Below, piece after piece: positions 35,932 through 55,608 of a stretch of 64,000 nucleotides of DNA (positions within the stretch are counted from its first letter, which is position 1; every line of letters starts with the position of its first letter). The translations under genes were made by a program, and so were the position numbers. The notes under the pieces are model-generated. The model saw only the letters and a program-made list of their open reading frames with translations, made no database searches and was not told where the DNA came from. The stretch is taken from sequence record NC_135729.1; one strand, 5' to 3'. The stretch is from a phage.

Positions 35932-36299
35932 CAGCCGTAGTTAACCTCCAGAACCTTACCTGCCAGCTTAATCATCTCCAGCAGATGCCCTGCAAACACA
36001 ACATCTGGGTTAAGCTTATCCACACCATCTACGGTAATATCTTCGAACAAGATTTTAAATAACTCTTCAATAGAGCTATCATCAAGTTCTTGGAACAGGT
36101 AAGCCAGAGCAGTAGGAAGGACCTCTGCCATATTCTGACCACCAGAGATAATAGATCCACCGATAGCACCTAGCGGGACAGCCACAATCTTACCGATTTT
36201 AGGCATGTTTTTCATTGCTTTCATCGGTCCCCAGTGGGTGATCACAAAGTTGTGCCCTGCTAAATCAATCTCTGTTGTAGGTCTAAAGTTTATAGCCAT
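35826..36299 (-). CDS. tail assembly chaperone (G-like, 157 aa)
   Basis: Between tail tube and tape measure genes; acidic C-terminus; contains the slippery site for the downstream -1 frame. Confidence 0.55.
   Translation of the reverse strand: MAINFRPTTEIDLAGHNFVITHWGPMKAMKNMPKIGKIVAVPLGAIGGSIISGGQNMAEVLPTALAYLFQELDDSSIEELFKILFEDITVDGVDKLNPDVVFAGHLLEMIKLAGKVLEVNYGCFFTQDGLGSLLEMLQQMGMIQQVNNLDQTPEEQE
35925..35931 (-). other. programmed -1 ribosomal frameshift slippery heptamer T_TTT_TTC
   Basis: Minus-strand sense ggc-tgt-ttt-ttc-aca (plus-strand gaaaaaa); fits X_XXY_YYZ in the zero frame near the 3' end of the chaperone gene. Confidence 0.5.
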
Positions 36300-48989: not shown

Positions 48990-49088
48990 GGTGCTAGGCG
49001 GTGGAATCGAACCACCTATGTATTCAACGACTACCTCGTCTATTTTCAGGATTAAAAATCCTCGCCCTTGCCAAAGGGCTTACCTAGC
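48990..49088 (-). ncRNA. atypical 99-nt tRNA-like element (anticodon uncertain)
   Basis: Good acceptor stem (GCTAGGT/GCCTAGC), D-arm (GCCC-TTTGGCAA-GGGC) and canonical T-arm (GGTGG-TTCGATT-CCACC), but a 4-bp anticodon-type hairpin (AGGA-TTTTTAA-TCCT) and about 31 nt before the T-arm; 3' end ACC. Confidence 0.4.
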
Positions 49089-50646: not shown

Positions 50647-50856
50647 TCAACAGATTCCGGCCTTATCCTTCCTGTCTGCGTATTCTTTAATCGCAACCTC
50701 ATCTGCATTAGTGACCAGGTATTCAAAGTAACTCTCAAGCTCCTCGTCAATGTCAGGAGACCAGCTCTTTTTCCTGTCAGTGTGAATTGCAGACTTGTTG
50801 AACTTATTACAGTTCTTTGCTACCGGGTTGTTCATTAAGCGCTCCTCAGCGTTCAT
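50647..50856 (-). CDS. hypothetical protein (69 aa)
   Basis: ORF overlapping the upstream gene by 11 nt; no motif. Confidence 0.35.
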   Translation of the reverse strand: MNAEERLMNNPVAKNCNKFNKSAIHTDRKKSWSPDIDEELESYFEYLVTNADEVAIKEYADRKDKAGIC

Positions 50857-51424
50857 AGTAAATTTTATTTAACATTACCTCATCCTTTGCAGAAAGGATA
50901 TCTAGATATGCATCACCGAATCTACCTGCAACAACCTCTGCATGATACATCACTTCGTTAATATCGTCAAGAGTGATAACTGGATGACCGTATCTCTCTG
51001 AGTATTGTCTCAGAGTGCGATGTAGGGAGTCATCATCATAGGCAGACTTTTTAATATCGCAAACACGACGAATAGCCTTGATGTCGAAAAACCCTGTACG
51101 ATACCAACCAAGAAAAAGGTTTCGTGCAGTGTCAACATCTACATCAATACCATTAAGAACCTTATCTACAAGATAGCTGTCATCCTTTGGACCAGCTTCC
51201 TTAGTGCGAATGTAGTTGCCATCTTTTCCAGGTGACATCTCCTTCTCATCACCAACCTGCATGCCATCATTTGGCGGTGTTAGCCACTTATCCGGATGCT
51301 TACGATCACGAGCGTTAGAATGATTACGCTGGAAACCAGGCTTCCACTTGAAAGTTTTCTCCATCTGTTCTTCATTCTGATAACGTTTTGCAATCTTTTC
51401 ACGGTCATCTTTGCGTGAACCCAT
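50846..51424 (-). CDS. hypothetical protein (192 aa)
   Basis: Charged protein; first gene downstream (leftward) of the non-coding hub; no motif. Confidence 0.4.
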   Translation of the reverse strand: MGSRKDDREKIAKRYQNEEQMEKTFKWKPGFQRNHSNARDRKHPDKWLTPPNDGMQVGDEKEMSPGKDGNYIRTKEAGPKDDSYLVDKVLNGIDVDVDTARNLFLGWYRTGFFDIKAIRRVCDIKKSAYDDDSLHRTLRQYSERYGHPVITLDDINEVMYHAEVVAGRFGDAYLDILSAKDEVMLNKIYYER

Positions 51425-51818
51425 AGCTGCCTCCTCTTCAAGTTATAGAAAAACTCACTGTATCACTTTGTAACGAGCTTTTCTATCAAACTGGTGCGAT
51501 TGCATTACCTGGTATAGTTCATATAGCTGTGGAGCGATTTAGGGGCCTTCTTGTCAGTTTCCACACATAAACTTCATCCAAGCTCGCGCGGGAGACTCTC
51601 AACCGACTCCTTACGGCGCTGGCAAGCTTTCGTCGGTGGTCCACATCAGTGCTCGGCCTTTGGCCTGCGCTATCGCTTCGCTCCCACACATGTTAACAGA
51701 CCTGCATGTATGCACTTCTGTTATTGTGTGCACCAAGGAGGCCCGGCATCTCGCCCCTCGTAGGCGAGTGCCAATGAAGGGCCGACACTACCTATAGTAA
51801 GTAATAATTTTAAAACAT

Positions 51819-51885
51819 GGTACTTAGGATCTAGTATATTCTACATAAGTTAAGTATATGTACTTAGTACCATAAGTACTAGATC
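51819..51885. repeat. nested inverted and direct repeats in an AT-rich segment
   Basis: GGTACTTAG-GATCTAGTA ... GTACTTAGTACC ... TACTAGATC, followed by AT-rich direct repeats (TATTTAGT / TATTTTAGT). Confidence 0.45.
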
Positions 51886-51928
51886 TTTTATTTTTTATTA
51901 TTTAGTTATTTTAGTTATATTCTTTATG

Positions 51929-52009
51929 TGTCCGTATCACGGACAGTTAGTGTCCGTATTACGGGCAGATGTGTCCGCGTGACGGACAGTAGTGTCCGTA
52001 TCACGGGCA
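51929..52009. repeat. array of four 17-bp palindromes, TGTCCGTAT(C/T)ACGGACA-type, at 21-22-bp spacing (operator- or iteron-like)
   Basis: Copies at 51929, 51951, 51972 and 51993: TGTCCGTATCACGGACA, TGTCCGTATTACGGGCA, TGTCCGCGTGACGGACA, TGTCCGTATCACGGGCA. Confidence 0.6.
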
Positions 52010-52084
52010 GTTACTGACCTCTGTTCCAGAGCGAACATAAAACATACGAATCCTTATAGTACAGATATTTAAGTTTTTACTGGT

Positions 52085-52435
52085 CTAACCAGTTGTTGAC
52101 ATTCGAATAACCTCTTCTGGTGGCAAAACTTTGGAAAATGTACATCTTTTACCTCTCCCTTGTGTGGATATTTCAACCACTCCTGCACATTCTAAAGTTT
52201 TAACGCACGCTGCTGCTTTTGTTTTCTTTATCCCAACATCTGCTGCAATTTTCCTTGTGCTTGGTGTGAAGCGTGAATTTCCTCCAAGCTTATACCAGTT
52301 GTGCAGGTAGCAGTATACGATCTTGTCATATAAGTCAAGAACAACAGCCTCCCCAGTTGTGTCATTCAAAACTTTTGACATAGACAGTATTTCAAGGGGG
52401 ACTTTAAGATATAGCAGCTTATCCCCATCTTTCAT
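52085..52435 (-). CDS. helix-turn-helix DNA-binding regulator (116 aa)
   Basis: Probable HTH segment STRKIAADVGIKKTKAAACVKTLECAGVV; gene ends about 75 bp from the palindrome array. Confidence 0.45.
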   Translation of the reverse strand: MKDGDKLLYLKVPLEILSMSKVLNDTTGEAVVLDLYDKIVYCYLHNWYKLGGNSRFTPSTRKIAADVGIKKTKAAACVKTLECAGVVEISTQGRGKRCTFSKVLPPEEVIRMSTTG

Positions 52436-52482
52436 ATCTCCTGATTCTCCTTGTGTGGCAATTTTCTTTAAAATAGCAGGGA

Positions 52483-53037
52483 TTACTCCCCGCTGTCAAT
52501 AGCAAGACTCATTGCAATACGGTATGCCTCTTCTAATGGTAAGAGTCTCCCCCACACATCCCAACCGACATCAAACTGCCTGCCAAACAACTGCTGTGTG
52601 GTTCCGTGAGCATGACCGAACAGTTGGACTGATCCGTGAGGCTTTCTGTTCCACTTTGCAAACTGGTAATGGCTCATACAGATCAAATTCTTGTTGTGGC
52701 GAAGCTCGTAATAATCTACAACCTCATGACCGAACTCTTTCATAATTCTGACAGTCGTCCTTGTGTCATGGTTACCACGAACAAGAATAATATGTCCGTT
52801 CAACATATTTAGAACATCTGGGAGCAATTTGTTGATATTCTTATCATTAGTGCACGCAATATCTCCCAAGTGAAACACAGTGTCTGCAGGTGACACAACA
52901 GAGTTCCACTCGGCGATGATTCCCGCATTCATACTGTCAAGATTGTGATCATACTGAGATCTGTGTTTTTGACATGAATCAAACTCCATGACCCGCTGGT
53001 GGAGAAAGTGTGTGTCGCTTGTTACAAAGTATTTCAT
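52483..53037 (-). CDS. calcineurin-like metallophosphoesterase (candidate polynucleotide 2',3'/3'-phosphatase)
   Basis: Start moved to the ATG at 53037 (MKYFVTSDTHF...; GAGGA upstream); motifs SDTHF, GDIACTND, GNHD, GHAHG match the metallophosphoesterase signature. Confidence 0.6.
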   Translation of the reverse strand: MKYFVTSDTHFLHQRVMEFDSCQKHRSQYDHNLDSMNAGIIAEWNSVVSPADTVFHLGDIACTNDKNINKLLPDVLNMLNGHIILVRGNHDTRTTVRIMKEFGHEVVDYYELRHNKNLICMSHYQFAKWNRKPHGSVQLFGHAHGTTQQLFGRQFDVGWDVWGRLLPLEEAYRIAMSLAIDSGE

Positions 53038-53044
53038 ACATTCC

Positions 53045-53455
53045 TCATTTAAGTTTAATGCAGTTTTTAAGCTGGCGTTCCATACGATCCACAACCTTGT
53101 CTGGAACATCATGAATGCTTTTATTACCGTGGCGGTTTTCAACCACGATCACGGTATAACTATACCCGTGACTGATTGCCATGTCAACATATTCCTGCAC
53201 ATGTTTTTCTTTTGTAAACGTATTACTTACCACGATACGGTCGTATCCCGTACGCATCATATCTTCTACGTTATCTTTGCACCATTTTGCTGCGAGTGTT
53301 ACTTTACTTGCATCCCAGTTGTAATTGCCGTCATCGTCATACCAGAACATGTCGTTCTCAAAATGTGGATACAGACCTTCTAAAGATAGCGCATTTGCCA
53401 GTGTTGATTTGCCAGACCCTGGCAGACCACGCACGATATATAGCATTTTAGACAT
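53045..53455 (-). CDS. P-loop polynucleotide-kinase-like protein (T4 Pnk kinase-domain-like)
   Basis: Start moved to the ATG at 53455 (GGAGG 7 nt upstream); Walker A GLPGSGKST and downstream VVSNT resemble the T4 Pnk kinase domain. Confidence 0.55.
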   Translation of the reverse strand: MSKMLYIVRGLPGSGKSTLANALSLEGLYPHFENDMFWYDDDGNYNWDASKVTLAAKWCKDNVEDMMRTGYDRIVVSNTFTKEKHVQEYVDMAISHGYSYTVIVVENRHGNKSIHDVPDKVVDRMERQLKNCIKLK

Positions 53456-53483
53456 AGCAACCCTCCGTTTTAATTTTAATGAT

Positions 53484-53512
53484 AGTATACCTAACTGTTT
53501 TGTTAATTTCAA
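53484..53512 (-). promoter_or_regulatory. sigma70-type promoter for the leftward kinase / phosphatase / regulator operon
   Basis: Minus-strand -35 TTGAAA (plus 53507..53512), 17-bp spacer, -10 TATACT (plus 53484..53489), then GGAGG and the ATG at 53455. Confidence 0.45.
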
Positions 53513-53515
53513 GTG

Positions 53516-53545
53516 TTGACACTAGGTTATTTGTGTGGCATGATA
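53516..53545 (+). promoter_or_regulatory. sigma70-type promoter for the rightward RNA ligase / Sir2 operon (divergent from the previous one)
   Basis: Consensus -35 TTGACA at 53516..53521 with a weaker -10 (CATGAT/ATGATA) 17-18 bp downstream; -35 elements of the two promoters lie back to back. Confidence 0.4.
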
Positions 53546-53573
53546 GACTGACAAAATGACAAATGAGGAACGT

Positions 53574-54491
53574 ATGATGAAGTATTTTAATGCAGATGAC
53601 CTAGTAGACAAAGGTCTTGTAACCAGTCGGTATTATCCAGATCTTGGATTAAAGATCTATAAATATGCCAGAAAAGTATTCTACAACAATCTGTGGCATT
53701 TGTCTCCGCGTTTACTGGAGTGCCGAGGTATTGTTGTTGGCAATGAGGGGAATGTTGTGGCATGGCCTTTCACAAAAGTATTCAACTTAGGAGAAAACTC
53801 CACCAACCTACCGGACAGTAAACTTGTTACTGCGGTAGAGAAAAAGAACGGATTCCTCGGTGTGGTATCATCTCATAAAGGTGAACTATTGTTCTCAACA
53901 ACCGGGTCTCTTGATTCTCCATATTGTAACCTTGCAAAGGAAACCATCCAAGAGCAATGTGGTAATTTAGATCTTATCAAGAAGGTTATGGGCAATGAAA
54001 ACATGACATTCATGTTTGAAATTTGTCACCCTTCAGATCCGCATATTGTTCAGGAAGATCATGGCGCATATTTGATAGGTTGCAGATATAATGATTCTGG
54101 AATAATGCTACCAGAAGCAGCTTTAGATGGGATTGCCAAATACCTTGGTGCAAAACGTCCTCACACTGTGCGTGAAATTCCGTTCAGCTATGCAAAAGAA
54201 TTAGCTGCAGAAACAAGAGGTGAAGGGTATATGATTCGTAAGCCTTACTACCCTTATGATCTGCAGCTGAAGATCAAGTCTCCATACTATCTGGCACGGA
54301 AGGCCGTAATGAGGGGTAAAGCTTGGAAGATTTGGGATGATGATATCTTTAAACGTGTTGACGAAGAGTTTTACGGCATGGTAAACTTCATTCGTAGCAA
54401 TTACACAGAGGATGTGTGGAACTGCCTCCTGGAGCAGGAACGCCGTGAGATACTTGATTACTATTTCCACAACGAGAACTATATGCAATGA
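53574..54491 (+). CDS. RNA ligase, Rnl2-like nucleotidyltransferase
   Basis: Motif I-like EKKNGF (T4 Rnl2 EKIHGTN), motif IV EGYMIRKP (T4 Rnl2 EGYVLKP), motif V LKIK; start placed at the ATG preceded by GAGGAA (track ORF starts at 53556). Confidence 0.6.
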   Translation: MMKYFNADDLVDKGLVTSRYYPDLGLKIYKYARKVFYNNLWHLSPRLLECRGIVVGNEGNVVAWPFTKVFNLGENSTNLPDSKLVTAVEKKNGFLGVVSSHKGELLFSTTGSLDSPYCNLAKETIQEQCGNLDLIKKVMGNENMTFMFEICHPSDPHIVQEDHGAYLIGCRYNDSGIMLPEAALDGIAKYLGAKRPHTVREIPFSYAKELAAETRGEGYMIRKPYYPYDLQLKIKSPYYLARKAVMRGKAWKIWDDDIFKRVDEEFYGMVNFIRSNYTEDVWNCLLEQERREILDYYFHNENYMQ

Positions 54492-54846: not shown

Positions 54847-55608
54847 ATGCGACGACTGATTATTATCTCCGGTGCTGGTTTGAGCGCTGAATCTGGTATT
54901 CCCACTTTCCGATCTGGTAGTACTGCAATGTGGGAGAATTTCAGCATAGATGAGGTGTGCAACATCCACACCTTCGCCAAGAACTACTATAAGGTGCATG
55001 ACTTTTACAATGCACGTCGTGTAGCTCTGGGCAGTGTTGATCCTAACCTTGCACATCTCCGGATCGCTGAGTGGTATTCCCGCTGGTCTGGTCGTGTGAT
55101 CAACCTGACCACCAATGTAGATGATTTGCTGGAGCGTGCTGGTGTAAAACATGAAGATATTTTACATGTCCACGGGTATTTGCCTGAAATCACCTATGAA
55201 GATACTGAAGGTAATGATGTAATTAAAAATATAGGGTACACGGAGGTAGATACAGGCAAGTATACCTGGGTTAAGCCCAATGTAGTGTTCTTCGGTGAGG
55301 TTGCTCCTAAGTATACAGACATGTATGACCTGTTGACATCTCTTACCAGCAATGATATGGTGATCCTGGTAGGTTGTTCTAACACAGTTATTAATTTTAA
55401 CTGGGAATTGTTTCCTGCTACTTGTAAAGGCACAAAACTGCTGATTGTAAACAAGTATGATTCGCAGAGTGCAGATGGAAGTGGCATTTCACGTAGCGAC
55501 CTTTATCAATATGAGGATCGCGGGATCCCTGTATGGTTTAACGGTGCTGTTGACGCTTTCTCTGATAAAGCATTTATTGAAACTGTAGAAAACTTTATGG
55601 AACTGTAA
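54847..55608 (+). CDS. Sir2-family (sirtuin-like) NAD-dependent protein lacking the zinc-ribbon module
   Basis: Sirtuin signature SGAGLSAESGIPTFR, NAD-pocket TTNVDDLLERAG, catalytic HG in LHVHG, VVFFGE and LVGCSNTV motifs; no CxxC...CxxC after the HG. Confidence 0.8.
   Translation: MRRLIIISGAGLSAESGIPTFRSGSTAMWENFSIDEVCNIHTFAKNYYKVHDFYNARRVALGSVDPNLAHLRIAEWYSRWSGRVINLTTNVDDLLERAGVKHEDILHVHGYLPEITYEDTEGNDVIKNIGYTEVDTGKYTWVKPNVVFFGEVAPKYTDMYDLLTSLTSNDMVILVGCSNTVINFNWELFPATCKGTKLLIVNKYDSQSADGSGISRSDLYQYEDRGIPVWFNGAVDAFSDKAFIETVENFMEL

Follow-up and report, generated by a model that had tools for sequence, protein, structure and literature searches.

Why would a virulent phage keep four near-identical palindromes, two helical turns apart, in a non-coding gap of its genome? 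The question is raised by positions 51929-52009 of a 64,000-nucleotide stretch of phage record NC_135729.1 (the window), where an array of four 17-bp dyads lies beside the gene of a 116-residue winged-helix protein. The 1.1 kb around the array matches, with 98-99.5% identity, 118 records of rV5-like phages (Vequintavirus), virulent Escherichia coli myophages with genomes of about 137 kb. An earlier note on this DNA had offered three functions for the array: a switch operator, a partition site or the iterons of a replication origin. Origin iterons are the best supported of the three; an operator is possible, if clearly less probable, and a virulent myophage with a circularly permuted genome is unlikely to have a partition site. 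With moderate confidence, the array is read here as the iteron block of a replication origin, the AT-rich tract next to it as the unwinding element, and the 116-residue protein as an initiator consisting of a DNA-binding domain only. We infer that the protein would bind the array, that the tract would melt and that replication would start at this locus. This reading is favoured because it jointly explains an initiator-type domain, phased semi-palindromic repeats, their uniqueness and their adjacency to the most meltable DNA.

The dyad array and the DNA beside it

The four dyads occupy positions 51929..51945 (TGTCCGTATCACGGACA, a perfect 7+3+7 palindrome), 51951..51967 (TGTCCGTATTACGGGCA), 51972..51988 (TGTCCGCGTGACGGACA) and 51993..52009 (TGTCCGTATCACGGGCA), and none is assigned to a strand. 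Their start-to-start distances are 22, 21 and 21 bp, so that the coordinates and the 21-22-bp phasing first reported for them prove correct to the base. Each 17-bp dyad has the core TGTCCG-N5-CGGACA, and the repeat unit of about 21-22 bp reads G-TGTCCG-N5-CGGRCA-G followed by a linker of 3-4 nt. The units are direct repeats with internal dyad symmetry, two helical turns apart. The 5-bp centres of sites 1 to 4 (TATCA, TATTA, CGTGA and TATCA) are not A-tracts. A few GenBank records carry the array as a "repeat_region" without a label, and three metagenomic Logan contigs (L015, L016 and L020) terminate within or just past it, evidently because four near-identical repeats break short-read assembly.

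The dyad is confined to this locus. The search for further copies of the 17-mer that had been proposed was run on the window and on the rV5 genome, and it returned the four array places only. With up to three mismatches allowed, the window gives 7 strand hits, all of them at these places; the expectation from shuffled sequence is 0.13, and none of the shuffles gave 7. In the rV5 genome (137,947 bp), the sole matches with up to two mismatches are the four orthologous sites at 65152-65232. The array is absent from 5,426 complete E. coli genomes, and the plasmids searched hold no copy except in one mis-filed phage genome.

Conservation within the array follows the layout of the sites. In an alignment of 11 Vequintavirus versions, including metagenomic contigs in which the protein is only 85-90% identical, 2 of the 48 columns in the half-site arms vary, both times at the same T/C position, as against 7 of 20 in the 5-bp centres (Fisher test, p 0.002) and 26 of 75 in the spacer between the stop codon and the array (arms versus spacer, p 5e-5). 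The linkers between sites are invariant (0 of 13 columns). When the most divergent genome is compared, the array retains 96% identity, the spacer 77%, the winged-helix gene 86% and the neighbouring genes 89-93%. Constant arms, variable centres and constant phasing are what would be expected from a row of dimeric proteins on duplex DNA. On this comparative evidence the array is under purifying selection. The suggestion that a dimer would bind on one face of the helix likewise agrees with the 6-bp inverted arms, the free 5-bp centre and the two-turn phasing.

Directly adjoining the array is an AT-rich tract at 51790..51928 (no strand assigned), a candidate DNA-unwinding element that the earlier note had passed over. 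It is the most AT-rich 60-, 100- and 140-bp stretch in the window and in the complete rV5 genome alike, with A+T contents of 85%, 81-82% and 79% over these lengths, and 16 of its 139 columns vary across relatives. Within it, on the plus strand at 51882..51894, lies an oriC-type 13-mer, GATCTTTTATTTT, which fits exactly the consensus GATCTnTTnTTTT, taken here to be that of the E. coli oriC 13-mers. This is the sole exact match to GATCTnTTnTTTT on either strand of the rV5 genome and of the window. 13-mers with one mismatch are found in phages GAP31 and KpS8 and in an Erwinia phage, at the same place and in the same orientation relative to the dyads. Enrichment of GATC/AGATCT at the locus was considered as evidence and rejected, the motif not being specially enriched there. 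Arguments from Dam sites are set aside, the single 13-mer excepted, because GATC is over-represented genome-wide (713 occurrences versus 520 expected).

The winged-helix protein, its relatives and known origins

The open reading frame 52435..52085, on the minus strand, encodes a stand-alone winged-helix protein of 116 residues (rV5 gp075), in agreement with its first description as a helix-turn-helix protein; it resembles the RepA N-terminal domain and DUF6945 and is a candidate origin-binding protein. In a single-sequence search of solved structures 4RO3 was the best match (E 5.5e-6), and a profile of the phage family matched the same structure with E 1.8e-11 over residues 8-98, nearly the whole domain. 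The runner-up in the profile search, the CodY winged helix (5e-4), falls seven orders of magnitude behind. 4RO3 is the N-terminal domain of RepA from the Vibrio cholerae satellite PLE (PMC7145576); it scores 80.7 bits on DUF6945 and is the archetype of that Pfam family. A bridging relative from an Aeromonas phage stands above the DUF6945 threshold with 29.4 bits.

The AlphaFold model of the 116-residue protein (predicted local distance difference test, pLDDT, 80) has the fold of DUF6945, a winged helix with an N-terminal helix and beta-hairpin extension and a C-terminal helix. In a Foldseek search queried with an earlier AlphaFold model (5-sequence alignment, pLDDT 59), later replaced, the top seven matches are all RepA_N-type N-terminal domains, including the Rep-DNA complex 5KBJ. 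The protein has no match to Phage_rep_O (PF04492), to which the GAP31 homologue shows a weak one (E 0.017). Its PHROGs family is labelled "replication initiation protein", and the RefSeq gene label of the same wording was apparently carried over from that family name. Its homology relates the protein to an initiator domain that binds iterons, and the protein consists of that domain alone.

The family is narrowly distributed. Among phages, tblastn finds the 116-residue protein only in the 118 Vequintavirus records; an exhaustive phmmer search of 1.84 billion representatives gives 10 hits, and a scan of IMG/VR with the family alignment recovers two Aeromonas-phage loci only. In Aeromonas phage 4L372D (L014:1396-2265), a 128-residue DUF6945 protein is followed directly by a T5orf172/MUG113 nuclease gene. 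The pair is a split form of the architecture of Odn from phage ICP1, and about 250 bp of extremely AT-rich DNA precede it. A metagenomic protein of 228 residues (P0013) fuses GIY-YIG to a DUF6945-like domain.

Distant homologues of 105-114 residues, about 35% identical over the helix-turn-helix region, are encoded by the sister genera Seunavirus (GAP31), Mydovirus (KpS8) and Henunavirus (an Erwinia phage) and by several metagenomic relatives. Before every one of these genes stand a GATCT-T-rich 13-mer-like motif, an AT-rich segment of about 50-65 bp and two dyads 23 bp apart, and the order and orientation of this module are constant. The sister dyad is TGCTCAAWTTGAGCA, or GGTCCAAAATGAACC in one diverged relative; its sequence is unlike that of the rV5-type dyad, and its centre is AAA or ATT. 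This co-variation of protein and dyad sequence supports assigning the 116-residue protein to the array sites. Its earlier nomination as the candidate binder thus gains from two sides, from homology to the PLE RepA N-terminal domain and from sister homologues encoded beside different phased dyads, and binding would be expected. In the sister genera the winged-helix gene heads an operon with genes resembling those of phosphoribosyl pyrophosphate (PRPP) synthetase and NAMPT (L007:2196-2513, L012:1501-1818, L013:1501-1824 and L027-L030), a pair that resembles NARP1, a phage pathway for NAD+ reconstitution (Adps/Namat; bioRxiv 10.1101/2024.02.11.579819). A 297-residue gene beside an AT-rich intergenic region of a phi92-like phage was considered as a full-length Rep and rejected, its product being a PRPP-synthetase-like protein.

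The closest known system is that of PLE, whose RepA_N-type initiator RepA binds the semi-palindromic iterons of the PLE origin, which PLE requires to replicate, as established by electrophoretic mobility shift assays and deletions (Barth et al. 2020, PMC7145576). There, too, the iterons are direct repeats in a non-coding region near the initiator's own gene. Replication by PLE RepA is supported by ICP1 and requires a superfamily 1B (SF1B) helicase of that phage. RepA uses a T7-type phage replisome together with an SF1B helicase, and rV5 encodes the same set: a T7-like (family-A) polymerase, a gp4-like primase-helicase and an SF1B helicase. The ICP1 polymerase and helicase-primase are of the same families as their counterparts in T7-like phages. 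The differences are equally plain. PLE RepA has a C-terminal domain, which the rV5 protein lacks; the PLE origin has three iterons of about 30 bp (PMC8263062) with 13-bp arms and an A-tract, whereas the rV5 array consists of four units of 21-22 bp in which arms of 6-7 bp flank a mixed centre; and PLE acts as a satellite with a stolen replisome, while the rV5 array belongs to the genome of the phage itself. ICP1 Odn illustrates that the same DNA-binding domain, placed outside a full initiator, still reads origin iterons (PMC8263062). Odn, however, carries a T5orf172 nuclease domain and targets a foreign origin, while the rV5 protein is non-catalytic and would find its presumed sites in the genome that encodes it.

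In the RepA_N plasmid initiators of Firmicutes (pSK41, pTZ2162; structures 4PQL, 4PT7, 4PTA and 5KBJ), which are among the top fold matches of the 116-residue protein, a winged-helix N-terminal domain of about 120 residues with a DnaD-NTD-like extension, a build that the rV5 protein shares, binds, as a dimer or tetramer, four direct-repeat "Rep boxes" with inverted sub-repeats; the rV5 units likewise contain inverted arms. In pSK41 Rep, the 120-residue N-terminal domain binds the four origin Rep boxes, and the C-terminal domain is essential and binds DnaG (Kwong et al., PMC5703833). The working initiator of pPR9 has HTH_36 in place of RepA_N (PMC5703833). These systems differ from rV5 in that the plasmid origin lies within the rep gene, whereas the rV5 sites are 76 bp beyond the stop codon, and in that the C-terminal primase-binding domain has no counterpart in the rV5 protein.

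Phage origins offer further points of comparison. The lambda origin has four iterons with internal dyads, dimers of a winged-helix initiator and an adjacent AT-rich unwinding region, and its firing is aided by transcription through or near the origin. It differs in lying within the O gene, as against an array outside the gene in rV5, and in having an O C-terminal domain that recruits P-DnaB. The primary origin of T7 and oriF and oriG of T4 share with the rV5 locus a promoter that fires into an AT-rich unwinding element, a virulent phage and a phage-encoded replisome; they lack iterons and a dedicated origin-binding protein.

Origin, operator and other readings

Transcription of the locus would probably start at a sigma-70-like promoter at 52470..52499 on the minus strand (TTGACA-18-TATTTT with a TG element, a consensus match only; P76 in the rV5 annotation). 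Since it lies upstream of the winged-helix gene, transcripts from it would cross the gene, the array and the AT-rich tract. An origin at this locus may then work as follows. The winged-helix protein, expressed early, would dimerise as do the RepA_N and PLE RepA N-terminal domains, and every TGTCCG-N5-CGGACA site would be read by one dimer, whose two recognition helices would enter successive major grooves. The 21-22-bp distance between sites would set four dimers in line on one face of the helix, where they may bend or wrap the DNA. The resulting strain, probably aided by read-through from the promoter of the winged-helix gene itself, would open the 140-bp tract of 79% A+T, and the T7-type phage replisome (gp4-like primase-helicase, family-A polymerase and perhaps the SF1B helicase) would enter the bubble. 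T7-type ring helicases are self-loading, so a bare DNA-binding-domain initiator could suffice, with no need for a recruiting C-terminal domain.

Several observations weigh against an origin. The 116-residue protein stays below the Pfam cut-offs both for HTH_36 (24.5 bits versus 25) and for DUF6945 (PF22182; 24.0 bits, E 4.4e-5, versus 28), and it has no Pfam match to RepA_N (PF06970). It ends one helix past the wing, without the C-terminal domain that RepA_N initiators need. All 17 relatives found among 5.8 billion proteins are likewise stand-alone, with 81-128 residues, which would be an equally fitting size for simple regulators. The centres of the array sites lack the A-tracts typical of RepA_N iterons, and the DnaA boxes that many iteron plasmids have close to their iterons are missing around the array, matches to TTATNCACA occurring in the window only at 36016 and 45939. 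Large virulent phages such as T4 can start replication without an origin-binding protein. The global minimum of the cumulative GC skew of rV5, at about 67 kb, is 1.8 kb from the array; it is weak evidence, because it coincides with the switch in the direction of transcription and is hence confounded. In the sister genera, finally, the dyads lie in the 5′ leader of the operon, downstream of a strong sigma-70 promoter, a layout that looks like autoregulation, and the sister protein weakly matches the Pfam family "wHTH-PRTase associated". In favour of an origin here, no competing one is known: the authors of the rV5 genome paper had tried GC-skew analysis, had already found the skew uninformative because of the transcription switch, and could not define an origin (PMC3606486). 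A literature search on Vequintavirus for iterons, origin mapping, a transcriptome, a description of the array or a link between array and protein found nothing relevant.

The points just listed lead to the rival that deserves most attention, in which the protein would be no more than a transcriptional regulator, with the four sites serving transcription alone and playing no part in replication. This is a possible explanation, though a less probable one than an origin. The sites might block read-through from the early promoters into the 192-residue gene downstream, the tRNAs and eventually the late genes, or they might govern a promoter lying within the AT-rich tract. A row of four dimers on one helix face would be an effective roadblock, and the gene is called "putative transcriptional regulator" in many records. 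A family made up entirely of small stand-alone winged-helix proteins fits a regulator, as do the weak "wHTH-PRTase associated" match and the position of the sister dyads, with the strong sigma-70 promoter on one side and the ribosome-binding site of the operon that encodes the homologue on the other. In the present phage, however, the sites are away from the regulator's own promoter: the array had been described as beside the gene, and it is adjacent, yet it lies 3′ of the gene, 76 bp past the stop codon, and the promoter region 52436-52520 holds neither a TGTCCG nor a CGGACA half-site. Nor is there a sigma-70-like promoter in or near the array. None was found on either strand of 51790-52084, by a scan limited to the sigma-70 type (phage-specific promoter types lying outside its scope) or in the annotation by the rV5 authors, and a manual reading of hexamers in the array and the AT-rich tract yielded only weak -35 elements. 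The best -10-like element on the minus strand, TAGAAT at 51843-51838, would give the centres of the four sites positions of about -106 to -170, farther upstream than activation usually allows. An operator also leaves unexplained the extreme AT-rich tract and the unique 13-mer beside the array, and the specific homology of the protein is to an initiator domain rather than to a repressor family. The two roles are compatible, because Rep proteins often also regulate transcription.

The remaining alternatives are all improbable to varying degrees. If the 116-residue protein were the small terminase subunit, which the rV5 annotation lacks, the phased sites would be pac: small terminases are small oligomeric helix-turn-helix proteins acting on repeated, phased sites, and a circularly permuted genome implies headful packaging from a pac site. 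A pac site, however, usually lies in or next to the small terminase gene and beside that of the large subunit, whereas here the gene sits in the early region amid RNA-repair and nucleotide-metabolism genes, about 4.3 kb from the large terminase gene (58.0-60.9 kb in rV5, against 65.15 kb for the array), with the tRNA cluster and the lysis genes between. Homology to the RepA N-terminal domain and the lack of any terminase family hit for the protein make packaging improbable. Slightly less probable still is a part in phage-satellite conflict, with the protein mimicking the origin specificity of a satellite or rival and the array acting as decoy or nuclease site. The same domain is fused to, or encoded beside, GIY-YIG and T5orf172 nucleases (P0013 and phage 4L372D), and mimicry of PLE RepA by ICP1 Odn has been shown experimentally (PMC8263062). 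Against this, Vequintavirus has no adjacent nuclease gene, the array lies in the phage's own genome and appears to be under purifying selection, and the absence of copies from the E. coli genomes and plasmids searched leaves no satellite partner visible.

To much the same low degree, the palindromes might act as RNA: a transcript could carry them as four stem-loops in tandem, the 3′ untranslated region of the winged-helix mRNA being one possible place. Each site could form a stem of 6-7 bp with a loop of 3-5 nt, stems are kept while loops vary, and the variable T/C arm position still allows a G-U pair in plus-strand RNA. It is the minus strand that is transcribed, however, and there the variant gives a C-A mismatch; the invariant linkers and the exact two-turn phasing fit arrays of proteins on duplex DNA rather than independent hairpins, no U-tract follows the sites (a terminator scan of the array and the AT-rich tract found no terminator), and Rfam gives no match above noise. 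A centromere-like partition site for a ParB- or ParR-like adaptor is the least probable reading, close to negligible. Centromeres of types II and III typically consist of phased repeats bound by small dimeric DNA-binding proteins, and one rV5-like genome is deposited as a circular 137.5-kb "plasmid"; yet the phage is virulent and circularly permuted, no NTPase of the ParA, ParM or TubZ type is encoded beside the array, and the evidence from protein families favours initiator domains.

Starting again from the origin reading, a fuller version can be drawn for a virulent myophage with a minimal RepA-type-domain initiator, combining iterons in the untranslated 3′ region of the gene that encodes the initiator, read-through transcription, a self-loading primase-helicase and a NARP1-like coupling in the sister genera. 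In this version, which is speculative and as a whole rather unlikely, the conserved GC-rich RNA beyond the tract might serve as primer or R-loop, the sister protein-site pair would also gate the NARP1-like NAD+-reconstitution anti-defence operon, and a single protein would link origin firing to the expression of counter-defence.

An iteron-type origin with a RepA-like winged-helix binder is an already known kind of system. The interest of the locus lies in its setting, for rV5-like phages are among the most frequently isolated E. coli myophages and have been used in O157:H7 typing, biocontrol and therapy, and the array and the 116-residue protein give Vequintavirus a concrete candidate pair of origin and binder. 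If the pair is real, it would aid phage engineering and the recognition of satellites able to hijack the origin. The RepA_N/DUF6945 initiator domain, characterised until now in plasmids of Gram-positive bacteria and in a satellite of Vibrio, would also gain a place in the genomes of large lytic coliphages, in a form whose unusual trait would be an initiator stripped to its DNA-binding domain. As an operator only, the array would be an ordinary regulatory site.

Flanking elements and neighbouring genes

The array and the AT-rich tract lie in a gap of 660 bp (51425-52084) between the 116-residue gene and a gene for a protein of 192 residues (51424..50846, minus strand). The size of the non-coding region was thus given correctly in the earlier note; its description as a hub was not borne out in the sense of a divergent one, since every gene to the left of about 53.5 kb lies on the minus strand and the switch to plus-strand genes falls at 53520-53556. 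The 192-residue protein has no match in Pfam, PDB or PADLOC, so it is not assigned as a partner.

The rest of the gap is largely taken up by a GC-rich conserved non-coding element at 51519..51789 (minus strand), about 270 bp long, of 50-63% G+C and adjoining the AT-rich tract. It is possibly not part of the origin. The element is present in all 118 Vequintavirus records and nowhere else, and it folds somewhat better than shuffled sequences (z -2.5). A helix between about 51563-51572 and 51515-51524 stays paired through five one-sided A/G or C/U changes, which are compatible with pairing only in minus-strand RNA; RNAalifold finds no compensatory pairs in the element. At gathering thresholds Rfam reports only tRNAs in the whole window, and a permissive scan of 51400-52100, covering array and GC-rich element, gives only noise. 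An 18-nt deletion in rV5 shortens, and retains, one hairpin of the element. Some annotators call small open reading frames in it.

Further downstream of the 192-residue gene lies a tRNA cluster. At 48990-49088 (minus strand) within it, ARAGORN predicts a 99-nt tRNA-like gene with a four-base anticodon (atcc), which is annotated as "tRNA-OTHER" in phage naam, is absent from other annotations and is not reported by the Rfam tRNA model. On the other side, just upstream of the winged-helix gene, positions 52483-54491 hold an RNA-repair-like cluster with a metallophosphoesterase and an AAA_33 (polynucleotide-kinase-like) ATPase, together with a divergent member, a T4 Rnl1-type RNA ligase. A Sir2-like gene follows the cluster at 54847-55608.

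Elsewhere in the rV5 genome, positions 104013-106618 (L011:4013-6618) form a region of 2.6 kb without an annotated gene, in which two transcription units converge; presumably this is the "non-coding" box of the rV5 paper. It contains another AT-rich peak of the genome (about 105,965) and no copy of the dyad.

Two sets of database records call for comment. Eighteen records labelled "Campylobacter phage" (MG0656xx; H1-H5 and others) are 98-99.5% identical to the E. coli rV5-like phages in this region, and their host labels look doubtful. A complete rV5-like genome of 137,565 bp, CP057073.1 (L031), is filed as a circular non-mobilizable "plasmid", pRHB39-C03_2, of an E. coli from a cattle farm; the record probably represents phage DNA present in the culture, not a plasmid.

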